Of a stretch of 64,000 nucleotides of DNA, positions 31,583 to 37,488 are shown in pieces. The translations under genes and the position numbers were made by a program. Source of the stretch: Occultella glacieicola (GTDB lineage Bacteria > Actinomycetota > Actinomycetes > Actinomycetales > Beutenbergiaceae). The stretch spans positions 1 through 64,000 of the forward strand of contig NZ_SMNA01000003.1 in the NCBI RefSeq assembly GCF_004353825.1, read 5' to 3'. Every line of letters begins with the position of its first letter. The stretch's first letter is position 1. The notes below the pieces were generated by a model. The model was not told where the DNA came from and did not search any database. It saw only the letters and a list, made by a program, of their open reading frames with translations.

Positions 31583-33100
31583 ATGACCCGCGACCGCAGA
31601 ACCCCCGTGCTCATCGCCCTGATCCTGACGATGGCGCTGGTGGCGATGGACACCACGATCGTGGCCACCGCGATCCCCCAGGTGGTCGCGGACCTGGGTG
31701 GGTTCTCCGCCGTCGGCTGGGTGTTCTCCGTCTACCTGCTGGCGCAGACGGTGACGATCCCGGTCTACGGCAAGCTCGCCGACCTCTACGGGCGCAAGCC
31801 GGTCCTCGTGGTCGGGGTCTCGATCTTCCTGCTCGGCTCGCTGCTGTCCGCCGCGTCGCCGGACATGCTCACGCTGATCCTGTTCCGGGCCCTGCAGGGG
31901 GTCGGCGCCGGGGCCATCGGTGCCACCGTGAACACGATCGCCGGCGACCTCTACAGCGTCGCCGAGCGGGGCCGGGTACAGGGCTGGCTCGCCAGCGTGT
32001 GGGGCATCTCCGCCGTCGCCGCGCCAACCCTCGGTGGTCTGTTCGCGCAGTATCTGAGCTGGCGCTGGATCTTCCTGGTCAACCTGCCCCTCGGGGCGCT
32101 CGCCCTCACCCTGATCGTGCGCGGCCTGCACGAGGACGTGATCAGGCGGCGGCACCGGATCGACTACGCCGGCACCGTGCTGCTGCTGATCGCGGCGAGC
32201 CTGCTCATCCTGGGCCTGCTGCAGGGCGGGACCGCGTGGGCCTGGGACTCCGTCACGAGCGTGGTCGTGTTCGCCCTCGCGATCGGCGCCGGCGCCGCCT
32301 ACGTGCTGGTGGAGCACCGGGCCGCGGAGCCGATGATGCCGCCCTGGCTGTGGCGCACCCGCGTCACGGCAGGGTCCTACCTCGCCACCCTGACCGCGGG
32401 ACTGATGGTGATCGGGCTATCGGTGTTCCTGCCGAACTGGGGCCAGATCGTGCTCGGCCTGCCCCCGGTGTCGGCCGGCTTCGTGCTGGCGGCGATGTCG
32501 ATCACCTGGCCGACCGCCTCGGGGCTGTCCGCCCGCCTGTACCTGCGGATCGGATTCCGCGACACGGCCCTGGTCGGCGCGGTCTTCGCGCTGCTCGCCG
32601 GCGTGGTGTTCGCCCTGCTCGGCCCCGGTGCCCCGGTCTGGCAGCCGGTACTCGGGGCCGCGCTGCTCGGAGCCGGGATGGGCCTGATCACGTCCCCGCT
32701 GATGGTCGGGCTGCAGTCCACGGTGGGATGGGGTGAGCGGGGCGTGGTGACCGGTGGCGCGGTGTTCGCCAGGTTCCTCGGTCAGAGTGTCGGGGCAGCG
32801 GTCTTCGGCGCGCTGACCAATGCCGTGCTCCTGGACCGGCTCGCGACGGCGCCGGCCGGTCTGGCCGAGGATCTCCCGACCGACGTGGACGGCGTCAGTG
32901 CCTATCTTGCCGAGGCGCACCCCCGGCCGGAGGTCGCCGAGTTCCTGCGACTGGCCGTACACGATGCCACCCACGCGGTCTTCCTCGGGCTGCTGGTCGC
33001 GGCGGTCCTGACGGTGTTGGCGCTCGTGTTCGTGGTGCCACGCCGATTCCCGACCGTGGCCGAGGACCCGAATCCGACGAGTGCGCCACCGAGTCGTTGA
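31583..33100 (+). CDS. MFS drug:H+ antiporter (DHA2, 14-TM type)
   Basis: MDTTIVATAIP, YGKLADLYGRK, FRALQGVG, WRWIFLVNLP. Confidence 0.92.
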   Translation: MTRDRRTPVLIALILTMALVAMDTTIVATAIPQVVADLGGFSAVGWVFSVYLLAQTVTIPVYGKLADLYGRKPVLVVGVSIFLLGSLLSAASPDMLTLILFRALQGVGAGAIGATVNTIAGDLYSVAERGRVQGWLASVWGISAVAAPTLGGLFAQYLSWRWIFLVNLPLGALALTLIVRGLHEDVIRRRHRIDYAGTVLLLIAASLLILGLLQGGTAWAWDSVTSVVVFALAIGAGAAYVLVEHRAAEPMMPPWLWRTRVTAGSYLATLTAGLMVIGLSVFLPNWGQIVLGLPPVSAGFVLAAMSITWPTASGLSARLYLRIGFRDTALVGAVFALLAGVVFALLGPGAPVWQPVLGAALLGAGMGLITSPLMVGLQSTVGWGERGVVTGGAVFARFLGQSVGAAVFGALTNAVLLDRLATAPAGLAEDLPTDVDGVSAYLAEAHPRPEVAEFLRLAVHDATHAVFLGLLVAAVLTVLALVFVVPRRFPTVAEDPNPTSAPPSR

Positions 33101-33171
33101 CGACGACCCGGGGCGACCTCCGCGTTCCGGGTGCAGGAATTCGACGTGACAGTCCGGGTAAGGTGCCTGAC

Positions 33172-33237
33172 ATGTACCAGACGTCGCGTTCCGCCGCGGC
33201 CGCGCGAGCTATCCGCTCGCCGGCTGCCGCTGCCTGA
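33172..33237 (+). CDS. Putative Ala-rich leader peptide MYQTSRSAAAARAIRSPAAAA
   Basis: 21 codons, 9 Ala; TAAGGT -10-like box at 33159-33164, 7 nt before ATG; directly upstream of AlaRS-like gene. Confidence 0.75.
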   Translation: MYQTSRSAAAARAIRSPAAAA

Positions 33238-33334
33238 CGTCCACCCACGCACACCGGCGACCGGAAACGGTCCGCCGGTGTCATGCTGTTCAGGCAGTGC
33301 CATCGGGCTCCTTTCCGGTCGTCTCCCGAAAGGA
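33230..33334 (+). promoter_or_regulatory. Putative translational attenuator (alternative helices)
   Basis: CTGCCTGA/TCAGGCAG; ACACCGGCG/CGCCGGTGT hairpin with GAAA loop; CGACCGGAAA/TTTCCGGTCG; TCCTTTC/GAAAGGA (SD). Confidence 0.75.
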
Positions 33335-33342
33335 CCACTCCC

Positions 33343-34536
33343 TTGAGCCTCGACCAGACCTTCATCGACTTCTTCGTCCAGCACGGTCACATCCCGACCA
33401 CGGGATCCTCGCTGATCCCGCGCCCCGGCGACCCTGTGCTCTTCACGACCGCCGGCATGCATCCGCTGACGCCCTTCCTGGAGGGTGAGCCGCATCCACT
33501 CGGGCGACGGCTCGTCGGGGTCCAGCGATGCCTGCGCACCACCGACCTCGACGAGATCGGCGACCCGACCCACCTCACCGTGTTCGAGATGCTCGGCTCC
33601 TGGTCGCTCGGCGACTACGGCAGCGAGCAGAGCCTGCGCTGGGGATACGAGGTGCTCCGCGACAGGCTGGGCGTCGACCCCGACCGGATGCACGCCACCG
33701 TCTTCGGTGGCAACGACGAGGTCGAGCTCGACCTGGAGTCGCTGGACACCTGGCGCAGCCTCGGCGTCCCGGTCGAGCTGACCACCGAGGACAACTGGTG
33801 GTCGAACGGCCCGGCCGGTCCGTGCGGCCCGGACTCGGAGATCTTCCTGTGGACCGGCGATGGCTCACCGGAGGGCACGCCGACCAGCGACGACCGCTGG
33901 ATCGAGGTGTGGAACCACGTCATGGTGCGCTTCCGTCGGCACCAGGACGGGTCGCTGGAACCGCTGCCGCAACACAACATCGACACCGGCCTCGGCCTGG
34001 AGCGGCTCAGCATGCTGCTCGAGGGCAAGCGGTCCGTCTACGAGACCGAACTGTTCGAGCCATGGATGCGGCTCCTGCCCGAACTGTGGAGGCTGGACGA
34101 GGAGTCCGAGCGGATCGTGATCGACCACCTCCGCTCGAGCATCGTCATCATCGGCGACGGCGTCCGGCCGTCGAACACCGGACGCGGCTACGTGCTGCGC
34201 CGGCTGATCCGGCGGGTGCTGACCCTGCTGTGGCAGGTCGATCGGTCCAGGACGCTCGTCGATCTGCCGCTGGAGGTGGTCGAGCACACGCTGCGACACT
34301 TCCACCAGGATGAGGGCATGACGCTGGTGCAGCAGGTGCTGGTCGACGAGGAGGTCCGGTTCACCGACCTGCTCCAGCGGGGCAGGCGGATCCTCGGCAG
34401 CGACCGCTTCCGGAAGACCCTCGACGAAGAGGACTTCGAGTATCTGCACCAGACCCACGGACTCCCGCGGGAACTCGTCCGATCGCTGATCGCGCAAGAG
34501 AGTGGAGCGTCGGACGCTCCTCTCTCGCTGATCTAG
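33343..34536 (+). CDS. Short alanyl-tRNA synthetase paralogue (aminoacylation domain only, 397 aa)
   Basis: LFTTAGMHP, QRCLRTTDLDEIG..HLTVFEMLG, GPCGPDSEIF, EVWNHV, IDTGLGLERL, DHLRS, GRGYVLRRLIRR; no editing or C-Ala domain; TTG start after GAAAGGA. Confidence 0.9.
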   Translation: MSLDQTFIDFFVQHGHIPTTGSSLIPRPGDPVLFTTAGMHPLTPFLEGEPHPLGRRLVGVQRCLRTTDLDEIGDPTHLTVFEMLGSWSLGDYGSEQSLRWGYEVLRDRLGVDPDRMHATVFGGNDEVELDLESLDTWRSLGVPVELTTEDNWWSNGPAGPCGPDSEIFLWTGDGSPEGTPTSDDRWIEVWNHVMVRFRRHQDGSLEPLPQHNIDTGLGLERLSMLLEGKRSVYETELFEPWMRLLPELWRLDEESERIVIDHLRSSIVIIGDGVRPSNTGRGYVLRRLIRRVLTLLWQVDRSRTLVDLPLEVVEHTLRHFHQDEGMTLVQQVLVDEEVRFTDLLQRGRRILGSDRFRKTLDEEDFEYLHQTHGLPRELVRSLIAQESGASDAPLSLI

Positions 34537-34595: not shown

Positions 34596-35162
34596 TCACC
34601 GGGGGTCGCCGGCGGTGGTCGCGAACCACAGCGTCGTGTCGCCGTAGGTCTTCTCGCCGTCCGGGGTCAGCCCGTCCGGCCAGACGGGCTCCCCTGACCG
34701 GCCGGCCCGTTCGACCACGACCACGGCGCCCGGAGCGAGCCAACCCGGAAGCACCAGCGCAGCCAGCACCTCGTCGAGGCCGCCGAGGTCGTAGGGAGGG
34801 TCCGCCAGCACGAGGTCGAAGGGGCCGCCGGGCGGGTCGCCGCCGAGGTAACGCTCCGCTCGGGTCGCGACCACCCGGACCCGGTCCGCGAGGCCCACCT
34901 GCGCGGCATTGGCCCGGCACAGTGCGGCGGCGGCCTTCGCCGCCTCGACCGCGACCACCTCGGCGGCGCCGCGGCTCGCGGCCTCCAGCCCGAGCGCACC
35001 GGAGCCGGCGTACAGGTCGAGCACCCGGGCCCCGCGGACCACGCCGAGATGGTCGAGCCGGGAGAACAGGGCCTCCCTGACCCGTTCGCTGGTGGGCCGG
35101 GTCCCGGCCGGCGGCACCTTGAGGGTCCGGCCGCCCGCGGAGCCGGCGACGATCCTGGTCAC
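34596..35162 (-). CDS. rsmD: 16S rRNA m2G966 methyltransferase
   Basis: TRIVAG, TRPTSERVREALF, LDLYAGSGALGLEA, DPPY. Confidence 0.95.
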   Translation of the reverse strand: MTRIVAGSAGGRTLKVPPAGTRPTSERVREALFSRLDHLGVVRGARVLDLYAGSGALGLEAASRGAAEVVAVEAAKAAAALCRANAAQVGLADRVRVVATRAERYLGGDPPGGPFDLVLADPPYDLGGLDEVLAALVLPGWLAPGAVVVVERAGRSGEPVWPDGLTPDGEKTYGDTTLWFATTAGDPR

Positions 35163-36784
35163 CGCGGTCCCGCGGCCTTCTGCGCCTCGGTCGCCCGCTC
35201 CATCATCGAGGGCTTCTTCTCGTCCTTGACATGGGTCGCGATCGCGAACGCGATGGCCGAGGTTGCGGCCTGCAGCCACACGAGCACGAACGTGGGGCCG
35301 AACGCGATCAAGGCGATGAGGGTCGGGATCAGGCAGATCACCACGAGGTCGGGGCCGCGGGCGAAGGCCAGCAGCACCCCGGGCGGCACCGGACCCATCG
35401 GGCCCGTCACCAGTGGCTTGGTCCAGTCCGGCGGCTTCCGGTACGCCGCCCGGACCACACCGGCGGCGAAGGTGGGGGCGGCGATCACGCCGAGCGCGAT
35501 CCAGCCGGGCAGGTTGCCATGGGTGGCGCCCCAGACTGCGAACACCCCGGCGGACCAGAGCACCATGATGACGCCCGGCAGAATGATCCGGACCCGGCGC
35601 ACGTCGAACGCGGAGATCGGGAAGAACCGGTCCAGCACCGGCGCCATCTCGGCGCGGCGGGCGCTCTCGGCGGTGGCCATCGCGGCCAGGTACCCGCCGA
35701 GGAGCAGGGTCGTCACGTTGACCCAGGTCGGCCAGCCGGCGAGCAGCGCCATCAGGGCCAGGGAAGCCGCGACCACGATCTGGATGAGGTGACGCGGTGA
35801 CCGGGACAGCACCAGGGCGTCGCCGGTGACGATCGCACTCACGGGGCCACGGACCCAGGCCATACGAGCCGACCGGCGGCGCTGGTCCGGAGCGGTGCTC
35901 CCGCTCAGCGCCCGGCCGAGTTCCCGGGTGTCCATCGAGGTCACCGCACCGGCGGCGTAGGCCGAGACCGCGCCCCGGGCCCGCAGTTCCCGGCCGGAGA
36001 TCGCGTTCAGGCCGGTGTCCACCCGGACCAACAGGGCCACCACCAGAACGGCAAGCACGGCGATCGCGACCACGGCCACCGTGCCGGTCGGCATCATCAG
36101 CGGCGGCGGACGCACGAACACCACGGCCAGTCCGAGGACCGGCCCGGCGGCCATCAGGATGTCGCCGATCAGCGCGGCCGGGCGCACCCGCCGGGCCCGC
36201 TTGTTGCCGAGCTGTACCTGCCCGGCCGCGGCGGCGAGCGCGAGCGCGGCTCCACCCAGGGTGCTGAGGACGACGATCGAACCGAGCGCCGGTCCCGGCT
36301 CCCCGAGCGCCAGGAACCCGATCAGGAGCCCACCGGCGGCGCCGACCGCGGCGCCCATGATCGGCACCAGCACCGACCGGGGGCGCAGCAGTCCCCGGCG
36401 GTCCGCCGGCGTCGGTAGCCACCAGACGGCCTGACCGCCGCCCATTCCGACCGGGCCGATCCGACCCGCGAGCCCCACGATCGCCCCGGCCACGATGAGG
36501 GTGGTGACCACGGCGAGCCAGGTCGGATCGAGCGTGTGCACCTCCGGGCCGGGGGTGAGGGTGGCGTTCAGGCCCTGCACCGCACCGAGCGCGATCGCCA
36601 GGGCGATGGCGGCGCTGAACACCACCGAGTAGACCTCCGAGATGACCTCGAAGTAGCTCCCACCGGTGTGCGCGTCGGTCGCGTCCCGGGTCAGCGAGCG
36701 CAGCTGCCGGCCATTCGGCCAGGCGTCGTCGTCGCCCCGAGGGTCCTCGACCGGCCGGGTCTCGTCGGCGTCCGTGGTGCTCAC
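35159..36784 (-). CDS. DUF6297-like multi-TM membrane protein
   Basis: Many TM helices; translationally coupled to ABC ATPase and rsmD. Confidence 0.75.
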   Translation of the reverse strand: MSTTDADETRPVEDPRGDDDAWPNGRQLRSLTRDATDAHTGGSYFEVISEVYSVVFSAAIALAIALGAVQGLNATLTPGPEVHTLDPTWLAVVTTLIVAGAIVGLAGRIGPVGMGGGQAVWWLPTPADRRGLLRPRSVLVPIMGAAVGAAGGLLIGFLALGEPGPALGSIVVLSTLGGAALALAAAAGQVQLGNKRARRVRPAALIGDILMAAGPVLGLAVVFVRPPPLMMPTGTVAVVAIAVLAVLVVALLVRVDTGLNAISGRELRARGAVSAYAAGAVTSMDTRELGRALSGSTAPDQRRRSARMAWVRGPVSAIVTGDALVLSRSPRHLIQIVVAASLALMALLAGWPTWVNVTTLLLGGYLAAMATAESARRAEMAPVLDRFFPISAFDVRRVRIILPGVIMVLWSAGVFAVWGATHGNLPGWIALGVIAAPTFAAGVVRAAYRKPPDWTKPLVTGPMGPVPPGVLLAFARGPDLVVICLIPTLIALIAFGPTFVLVWLQAATSAIAFAIATHVKDEKKPSMMERATEAQKAAGPR

Positions 36785-37488
36785 ATCGCCTCGATCGCCT
36801 GGGCTGCCACCTCGGGGCTGACCACCCGGACCTCGTCCTCGCCGAGCAGCACCGCTCGGGTGGCCACCACCCGGACCAGCACCGGGTCGTGGGTGGCCAT
36901 GACCACGCCACCGCCACTCTTGCGCTCGGCGGCGAGCCGCTCCGCCAGCCGGTCCCGCATCCCGGAGTCCAGCCGCTGCTCGGGTTCGTCCAGGACCATC
37001 AGCCGCCGCGGCCGCACGAACGCCGAGGCGAGCAGCAGCCGGCGCCGCTGGCCCGAGGACAGTGCGGTCGGGGCGGCCTGCTGGCGGGCGGTGAGGCCGA
37101 ACTCCTCGATGATCTCGGTGACCAGCTCGGACACGCGTTCCATGCCGTGCCCTCGGGCGGTCAGCAGGAGGTGCTCGCGGACGGTGAGGGCCGGCAGGTA
37201 GGAGTCCTCGTCGAGCACGATCGCGACGTCCGCCCGGAACCGGCGGGCCCGCTCGTCGACGGGCCGCCCGAAAACGTCGATCTGGCCGCCGAGGACGTCG
37301 AGGAGGCCGGCGACGGCGCGCAGGAACGTCGACTTGCCGGTGCCGTTCGCGCCCACCACGGCCAGGCCCTCGCCTGGCTTCATGTTCACCGTGATCGGCG
37401 GGCACACGGCGCTGGCGATGTCCGAGCCGTAGCCGACGCTGACCTTGTCCGCACGGATCATGGGGGCGGTCGTCTGCTTCTTAGCCAC
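36781..37488 (-). CDS. ABC transporter ATP-binding protein
   Basis: GANGTGKST, LSSGQRRR, VLDEP, ATHD. Confidence 0.92.
   Translation of the reverse strand: MAKKQTTAPMIRADKVSVGYGSDIASAVCPPITVNMKPGEGLAVVGANGTGKSTFLRAVAGLLDVLGGQIDVFGRPVDERARRFRADVAIVLDEDSYLPALTVREHLLLTARGHGMERVSELVTEIIEEFGLTARQQAAPTALSSGQRRRLLLASAFVRPRRLMVLDEPEQRLDSGMRDRLAERLAAERKSGGGVVMATHDPVLVRVVATRAVLLGEDEVRVVSPEVAAQAIEAM

Follow-up and report, generated by a model that had tools for sequence, protein, structure and literature searches.

Conservation and predicted regulation of an alaL-type leader peptide upstream of an alanyl-tRNA synthetase paralogue in Occultella glacieicola and other Actinobacteria

The enterobacterial trp, his and leu attenuators follow a 1:2, 2:3 and 3:4 topology of pairings, in which the regulatory codons lie in region 1 and region 2 is covered once the ribosome has come to the stop codon, while the trpRS1 attenuator of Streptomyces coelicolor is a leader-peptide attenuator of an auxiliary aminoacyl-tRNA synthetase (aaRS). 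Here we analyze a leader of comparable layout in the actinobacterium Occultella glacieicola, located in the first 64,000 nucleotides of contig NZ_SMNA01000003.1 (assembly GCF_004353825.1); this whole stretch of DNA is hereafter called the window. On its forward strand, a short alanine-rich upstream open reading frame (uORF) precedes a gene for a paralogue of alanyl-tRNA synthetase (AlaRS). We propose, with a probability that we put at roughly 0.62, that this alaL-type leader couples ribosome stalling at Ala codons to the expression of the AlaRS paralogue, which it would likely switch on when charged tRNA-Ala is low.

The closest described system is alaL of S. lividans TK24, a leader peptide of sequence MNVIGRNIFATARATSSPVAAA-stop that lies before the 'alaS' gene SLIV_01315 and is included among attenuators found via RNA-seq (Droste et al. 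2021; PMC8079986, Table 4). Its authors call this leader type previously undescribed, and what they report on alaL includes neither a structure or mechanism nor any comparative data or test (PMC8079986). A literature search for 'alaL' combined with 'leader peptide' returned PMC8079986 only, and literature searches found no experiment on alaL. Judged by sequence, alaL and the O. glacieicola leader are members of the same family. The core of the former (…ATARATSSPVAAA-stop or …TATARATSSPVAAA-stop) resembles that found here (…AAAARAIRSPAAAA-stop), in frames of 22 and 21 codons, respectively, and according to Table 4 of the same paper alaL likewise lies upstream of an 'alaS' gene, on a chromosome arm. 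Peptides near-identical to S. lividans alaL are carried by the Streptomyces loci that we designate L057 and L086. The differences are that the two leaders belong to different genera and orders, and that Streptomyces has Thr-Val where O. glacieicola has Ala-Ala, a pair of exchanges compensated in the RNA. Because alaL is already in print, the O. glacieicola leader is not a new kind and constitutes no new class of regulation. An earlier note on the window, made from its letters alone, had described the leader as unannotated and had named no Ala-codon example; on this point it was anticipated by alaL itself, published in 2021 (PMC8079986), and by the whiB7 'Ala leader' of 2023 (PMC10274678). We infer that SLIV_01315, as well as SCO7600 of S. 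coelicolor, is the short AlaRS paralogue considered here.

The mycobacterial whiB7 uORF is enriched in Ala, senses alanine starvation and has been termed 'Ala leader' (Poulton et al.; PMC10274678). As far as the description in that paper goes, it is like alaL in being actinobacterial and Ala-enriched and, as predicted for alaL, in having its attenuation relieved by stalling, whereas it is long and variable, responds to many amino acids and controls a transcription factor via a Rho-independent terminator; its sequence bears no relation to that of the alaL-type leader. Streptomyces also has the leader-peptide attenuators trpL2-trpS, leuL2-leuS and thrL-thrS, among those covered by Droste et al. 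2021 (PMC8079986). These aaRS attenuators share with the present leader a frame of cognate codons before a synthetase gene, followed by hairpins with or without a U tract, but they concern other amino acids, whereas here the uORF lies inside a 24-bp hairpin and an extra hairpin sequesters the Shine-Dalgarno (SD) sequence. The leaderless polycysteine short open reading frames of mycobacteria, which act as attenuators of the gene that follows them, as outlined in the corresponding preprint (bioRxiv 10.1101/834739), are similar in their runs of a single codon, in their response to an amino acid, which is predicted for the present leader, and in belonging to Actinobacteria, and dissimilar in using Cys codons and in preceding other genes. 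With the enterobacterial attenuators our leader has in common the topology, the position of the regulatory codons in region 1 and the predicted covering of region 2 by a ribosome at the stop codon; in contrast to them, its whole 1:2 hairpin lies within the reading frame, many members of the family, O. glacieicola included, are without a U tract, and the 3:5 and 5:6 pairings add a translational layer. T-box riboswitches (RF00230) also regulate aaRS genes by tRNA charging, whereas the present leader has no Rfam match, no specifier loop and no T-box sequence. Alanine is not mentioned by Seliverstov et al. 2005 (PMC1262725).

The O. glacieicola leader starts with a -10-like box, TAAGGT (TAnnnT type; 33159-33164, forward strand), placed 7 nt 5' of the ATG of the uORF, a distance from which a leaderless transcript is predicted; a simple promoter scan of 32900-33500 returned no E. 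coli-type promoter. The uORF extends on the same strand from its ATG at 33172 to its TGA at 33237 and encodes MYQTSRSAAAARAIRSPAAAA-stop in 21 codons, nine of which specify Ala as compared with 13.5% genome-wide. Ribosomes are predicted to stall in its first Ala cluster, GCC GCG GCC GCG CGA GCT (33193-33210), which contains a CGA-GCN pair that is invariant in the family, both CGA (5.7% of Arg codons) and GCT (2.9% of Ala codons) being rare in the genome. Despite its rarity, GCT makes up three of the nine Ala codons of the uORF. The genome carries 54 tRNA genes, among which those for tRNA-Ala have the anticodons CGC (three copies), GGC (one) and UGC (one). Decoding of CGA by I·A wobble alone would render the codon after it hypersensitive, but we discarded this rationale for the CGA-GCN pair as unsupported here, since the genome encodes a tRNA-Arg(UCG).

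The uORF is not an artefact of GC content. The 5.34-Mb genome, of 71.4% GC, contains 10,686 ATG-started open reading frames of 15-30 codons, of which 14 have an Ala content of at least 9/21, six end in AAAA and three combine both features; the alaL uORF is the only one with either a pair of AAAA runs or, 6-7 nt 5', a TAnnnT box. The uORF shares its frame with the AlaRS paralogue, the TGA being the sole stop within an upstream-extended frame of 432 aa (33172-34536). Stop-codon readthrough, or a fusion of the uORF with the paralogue, was nevertheless rejected because the leaders of relatives (166-213 nt) are mostly not multiples of three and the shared frame is thus not kept.

The family was assembled from 51 loci, obtained by scanning one genome per species, and four of the genus Occultella, which together gave 54 leaders, 52 of them distinct. 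The leader is present in 50 of the 51 related actinobacterial loci and in all four Occultella genomes. The leaderless locus, L073, lies on a contig from a metagenome-assembled genome (MAG), where the match to the paralogue begins only with residue 59 of the query, so that truncation or rearrangement of this copy is possible. The record titles of the 51 loci name Kribbella, Occultella, Streptomyces, Streptacidiphilus, Kitasatospora, Nocardia, a Streptosporangiaceae MAG and unclassified actinobacterial MAGs. In all 52 distinct leaders a TAnnnT box lies 6-7 nt 5' of the ATG and the frame from ATG to TGA is kept, with lengths of 63 nt (3 copies), 66 nt (36), 69 nt (12) and 72 nt (1). Internal stops occur neither in frame 1 nor in frame 3, and interrupt frame 2 in 24 of the 52; within the gap-free block of the alignment, columns at the first and second codon positions have mean entropies of 0.34 and 0.36, and those at the third, about twice as variable as the others, of 0.64. 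This combination of frame conservation and third-position variability favours translation of the uORF. The peptide core can be written A-[AT]-[AV]-R-A-x-x-S-P-[AV]-A-[AD]-A-stop, each copy contains between four and nine Ala codons, and the CGAGC of the Arg-Ala pair does not vary in the alignment. The earlier note had suggested looking upstream of orthologues for Ala-rich uORFs and covarying helices, and both are found, the former as 52 distinct, apparently leaderless copies and the latter in the first two hairpins described below.

We also searched 401 genomes of the class with a degenerate pattern for the 3' half of the uORF, using the reversed pattern as control. The pattern matched seven genomes, O. 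glacieicola included, and the reversed control six, so that the count alone means little; all six matches in the other 400 genomes, however, lie directly upstream of the paralogue (59-68% identity) and come with a full uORF and the second hairpin. Among the genomes searched, the leader is confined to the front of this AlaRS paralogue family. A divergent member, L084 (1533-1640), has the peptide MRSRRVRTAAGRAASSPAAPA-stop, a replaced top of the second hairpin (…CGGGACUCUCCCG…), and changes also in the downstream segment GUCCCGUC and in the SD region GACGGAG; in this case all three of region 3, anti-SD and SD may have co-varied. Judging from these comparisons, the alaL leader is a widespread, structurally conserved cassette in Actinobacteria, well beyond its single record in S. 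lividans.

The gene that follows the leader, on the forward strand from a TTG at 33343 to 34536, encodes an AlaS2-like protein of 397 aa that consists of the catalytic and tRNA-recognition domains only, without the editing or C-Ala domain. The assignment of this gene to an AlaRS paralogue in the earlier note is upheld by its match to Pfam PF01411, the class II AlaRS catalytic domain (2.1e-88, profile positions 3-409 of 552), by the alignment of residues 3-388 with AlaRS catalytic fragments in the PDB and by the motifs QRCLRT, WNHV and DTGLGLER, kept as in the canonical alaS of the same genome. A 'GGKH' gap after motif 2, seen in comparison with human AlaRS, was dropped as a trait of the paralogue, since that canonical alaS has it too. 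The full-length alaS resides on a separate contig (C20), as an open frame of 961 aa with 38% identity to the paralogue; the leader has a single copy in the genome, and canonical alaS is thus without it. The paralogue occurs in only four of 41 genomes of the family and order, all of the genus Occultella (85-100% identity), the other matches in those genomes being canonical alaS with E of 1e-65 or weaker. In the protein database, the best 120 of 7,980 matches are 378-431 aa long and 74-91% identical, come mostly from Kribbella and Occultella and bear the name 'alanine--tRNA ligase-related protein'. The gene neighbourhoods of 13 loci have no conserved neighbour or operon partner in common. Leader and gene behave as a self-contained unit.

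Folding of the 202-nt leader yields -97 kcal/mol, as compared with -73 ± 4 for shuffled sequences (z = -6.0; 0/200 shuffles as stable). The family shares three conserved hairpins, all on the forward strand. P1 (regions 1:2; 33180-33241; -40.1 kcal/mol) takes in the uORF, starting at its codon 3 and reaching 4 nt beyond its stop, and P2 (regions 3:4; 33251-33281; -24.8 kcal/mol) has a GAAA loop and one conserved bulge, the GNRA loop and the one-base bulge being kept across the leaders. Taken together, P2 and the inner stems of P1 show pairing in 93.0% of 1298 cells and contain two-sided changes in 19 cells vs 3.6 ± 1.7 after shuffling, with a covariation of 0.095 vs 0.070; neither value is reached by any of 500 shuffles. 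The base stem of P1, in which codons 2-5 pair with UGAC and the bases that follow it, has a median length of 7 bp; the 52 leaders show 31 variants of it, such as GACGUC/GACGUC, GAUGUC/GACAUC and GAGGUCA/UGACCUC. P3 (33306-33336; -14.1 kcal/mol) joins the anti-SD TCCTTTC (33309-33315) to the SD GAAAGGA (33328-33334), and L062 has by eye compensating changes in it, GAUCCCUUUCUGG with CAGAAAGGAUC. The tail after P2 is U-rich, with at least 6 U in 10 nt, in 23 of the 52 leaders, mostly of Kribbella and some of Streptomyces, where P2 thus resembles an intrinsic terminator.

The elements listed in the earlier note, namely TAAGGT, the uORF, the GAAA-capped hairpin, TCCTTTC with GAAAGGA and the TTG start at 33343, are all present in the sequence at the positions given, and the GAAA-capped hairpin, our P2, as well as the anti-SD:SD hairpin, our P3, proved to be conserved. 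The helix that it had placed between CTGCCTGA (33230-33237) and TCAGGCAG (33290-33297) occurs only in O. glacieicola and is absent from its three congeners and from the other relatives. We therefore do not retain it as a core element; the 3' half of the uORF pairs instead with the 5' half, forming P1, and can also pair with the 5' strand of P2.

This last pairing would provide the alternative structure of an attenuator. Region 2, CCGGCTGCCG (33220-33229, forward strand; codons Pro17-Ala20), is the candidate antiterminator or anti-P2 strand, and its partner is region 3, CGGCGACCGG (33255-33264, forward strand), the 5' strand of P2. The resulting 2:3 helix of 10 bp is paired in 92.5% of 520 cells, vs at most 50.8% when slid, shows slight covariation and amounts in O. 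glacieicola, with one C·A mismatch, to -12.8 kcal/mol. A further candidate pairing involves region 5, TTTCCGGTC (33312-33320, forward strand), a possible anti-sequestor partner complementary to GACCGGAAA (33259-33267) of P2; this 3:5 pairing, of -13.4 kcal/mol, is paired in 91.9% of 468 cells vs at most 66.7% when slid. Regions 2:3, 3:5 and 5:6 are thus complementary across the leader family, and the classical 1:2, 2:3 and 3:4 attenuator layout is present, with 2:3 weaker than 3:4 at equilibrium. The pairings 4:5, 1:4 and 2:4 are, by eye, short (4-7 bp) or in need of pseudoknots.

From these elements the following sequence of events can be envisaged. With ample Ala-tRNA, the first ribosome would reach the UGA and cover region 2 (33220-33229), ending, by standard footprint sizes, about 3 nt before P2; P2 and P3 would then form, which would lead to termination where a U tract follows P2 and to occlusion of the SD everywhere. 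When Ala-tRNA is scarce, stalling would occur in the first Ala cluster or at CGA-GCN (33193-33210). Standard footprint sizes also predict that a ribosome with CGA in its P site protects the RNA to about the first base of region 2, so that the footprint of the stalled ribosome would stop just short of this region; once freed, region 2 might pair with the 5' strand of P2 (33255-33264) before the 3' strand is made, and P2 would not form. For the opening of P3, the candidate route is the GACCGGAAA:TTTCCGGTC pairing. Given the poor U tract after P2 in O. glacieicola, the output there is likely to be mainly translational.

Several observations weigh against this scheme. Its termination arm is limited: the tail of P2 in O. 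glacieicola, UGUCAUGCUGUUC, is a poor U tract, no terminator was called by a simple scan of 32900-33500, and the combination of a 3:4 hairpin with a U tract that is expected of an intrinsic terminator is not found in this leader. The U tract after P2 is poor in 17 of the 52 leaders, and together with the absence of a called terminator here this means that termination cannot be the universal output. As to the translational arm, the P3 duplex is only modestly better than shuffles, clearly so (z < -2) in only 17 of the 52 leaders, and the 3:5 pairing has no covariation beyond shuffles. The central pair of the 2:3 helix, 64:102, is a C·A mismatch in 38 of the leaders, O. glacieicola included. The other leaders speak for the helix, with U-A in 8, C-G in 4 and U·G in 2 of them, as do the later loci L085-L089 (five of the six pattern loci), which, read by eye, add three U-A and two C-G.

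Equilibrium folding likewise speaks against the switch. We modelled ribosomes by constrained partition-function folding, with a 30-nt footprint at every codon of 11 leaders. In 8 of the 11 the probability of P2 remains at least 0.8 at almost every ribosome position, and in O. glacieicola it is 0.89-0.91 for the modelled positions; in favour of the switch, L063 has a value of only 0.04-0.15 when codons 8-9 occupy the A site, and P2 is partially lost in L058 and L066. The accessibility of the SD does not rise for any modelled ribosome position in the 11 leaders, pseudoknotted and kinetic states being outside the model. Enforced folding of the 2:3 helix puts 12 leaders 0.4-13.9 kcal/mol above their P2 state; the gap is a small one of 0.4-2.3 kcal/mol in three of the 12, in favour of the helix, and one of 13.9 kcal/mol in O. 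glacieicola. As P2 and P3 persist in equilibrium folding, any real switch must be kinetic and co-transcriptional. P3 stays formed in the enforced 2:3 state, with the SD sequestered, so that this state does not account for switching translation on. The earlier note had proposed that CGACCGGAAA (33258-33267) pairs with TTTCCGGTCG (33312-33321) and thereby frees the SD: both segments are where it had placed them and the complementarity, as GACCGGAAA:TTTCCGGTC, is conserved, whereas the freeing of the SD is not seen at any ribosome position in equilibrium folding.

Other points against concern the Ala codons themselves. The top stem of P1, GAGC:GCUC, never varies, and the invariance of CGA-GCN could thus be structural. 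The P1 pair 39:64 is GC in 42 leaders, AU in 6 and GU in 4, and the exchange of G-C for A-U replaces Ala by Thr in one arm and by Val in the other; at these positions, therefore, the RNA helix rather than alanine is the stronger constraint, and the second run of Ala might be no more than a reflection of the first.

The strongest alternative, a rather unlikely one in our estimation, is that the leader is a general sensor of translation stress. The uORF would be translated, but any slowing of ribosomes, by antibiotics, cold or shortage of any amino acid, would relieve the attenuation, the richness in Ala would be a by-product of the GCN:GCN repeats of a GC-rich, self-complementary P1, and control would reside mainly in a promoter dependent on WblC/WhiB7. 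The compensated Ala to Thr and Ala to Val changes conform to this view, as does the response of the whiB7 uORF to many amino acids reported in the account of Poulton et al. (PMC10274678). So does the published work on S. coelicolor, in which the expression of alaS2 (SCO7600) depends on WblC and on tetracycline and the gene is placed in the WblC/WhiB7 regulon, the WblC promoter being presented as GAAAWY, a -35 box 3 bp downstream of it, a spacer of 16-19 bp and TANNNT (Lee et al. 2020; PMC7157823). Of the 52 leaders, 33 have a GAAAWY-like motif with at most one mismatch at 23-30 nt 5' of the -10 box, a perfect one in 10 cases, as compared with 3.7% of random windows, which suggests that the cassette is in the WhiB7 regulon well beyond Streptomyces. 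Among the leaders that have such a motif, at about 26-30 nt, are L003, L005 and L057-L070. The promoter of O. glacieicola itself argues the other way, for it has no such motif 23-30 nt upstream of its -10 box, its GGAATT being placed at 17 nt. A sensor of stress in general would also leave unexplained that the regulated gene encodes an AlaRS, that the leader is found before no other gene in the genomes searched and that every copy retains 4-9 Ala codons.

An improbable alternative is that a factor acting in trans binds the P1-P2 RNA, the open frame being incidental or secondary; AlaS2 itself could be this factor, by autoregulation as at the ThrRS operator, or else a different protein, tRNA-Ala or some small ligand. 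What makes it conceivable is that the sequence of P2, its GNRA loop and its single bulge are near-invariant across orders and that P2 and the invariant top stem of P1 are conserved beyond the needs of pairing, although the conservation of P2 is also explained by its several alternative partners, and the apical loop of P1 is variable. A mere binding site would hardly keep ATG, TGA and frame over four length classes, with variable third positions, nor the leaderless-promoter spacing in 52 of 52 leaders. Furthermore, an Rfam scan of 32500-34000 with E up to 10 gave chance matches only, none of them on the forward strand over 33159-33345 and no T-box among forward-strand families. Finally, at 71% GC neither Ala codons nor stable hairpins are anything unusual, but a chance frame with chance hairpins in intergenic DNA is hardly credible in view of the conservation over several orders, the covariation and the uniqueness in the genome.

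With regard to the surroundings of the cassette in O. glacieicola, a gene for a 505-aa MFS transporter (PF07690, with a TRI12/drug-efflux-like match; 31583-33100) lies on the same strand and ends 72 nt 5' of the uORF, and the DNA upstream of the -10 box differs from that of the three other genomes of the genus. Beyond the paralogue, a convergent long open frame (34596-36917, reverse strand) has an RsmD-type methyltransferase domain (PF03602) at its C-terminal end and probably comprises two genes in one frame.

Returning to the reading that we prefer, a leader coupling stalling at Ala codons to the AlaRS paralogue, its physiological role would, by analogy with the WblC/WhiB7-dependent alaS2 of S. 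coelicolor, likely be to provide additional AlaRS activity when alanine supply or translation is under stress. According to a preprint on cold shock (10.1101/2025.04.11.648403), SCO7600 is transcriptionally enhanced and translationally repressed, a repression that fits the SD-sequestering P3. In a preprint on trans-translation (10.1101/2025.10.10.681568) it is argued that tagging by tmRNA drains alanine and thereby intensifies stalling in Ala-rich uORFs, and this drain suggests a possible use for an extra AlaRS. A more elaborate version, which as a whole we regard as unlikely, would have alaL act as a two-layer sensor of tRNA-Ala charging built of six mutually complementary segments: a stall at CGA-GCN would block P2 via 2:3 (attenuation), after which the loop side of P2 would capture the anti-SD (translational activation), so that synthesis of a WhiB7-driven, editing-free mini-AlaRS would be restricted to a collapse of alanine charging, such as a drain of Ala-tRNA or Ala-tmRNA by trans-translation under antibiotic stress might cause, and the cassette of leader and gene would move as a unit between actinobacterial orders. 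The helix map of 1:2, 2:3, 3:4, 3:5 and 5:6 pairings is concrete and open to mutational testing. The present findings also connect the cassette with the WhiB7/WblC stress response, for which the supply of alanine is known to be of importance. If the proposed coupling is true, the leader would constitute a simple natural reporter of Ala-tRNA charging and may give a hint at the purpose of the editing-free AlaRS paralogue.

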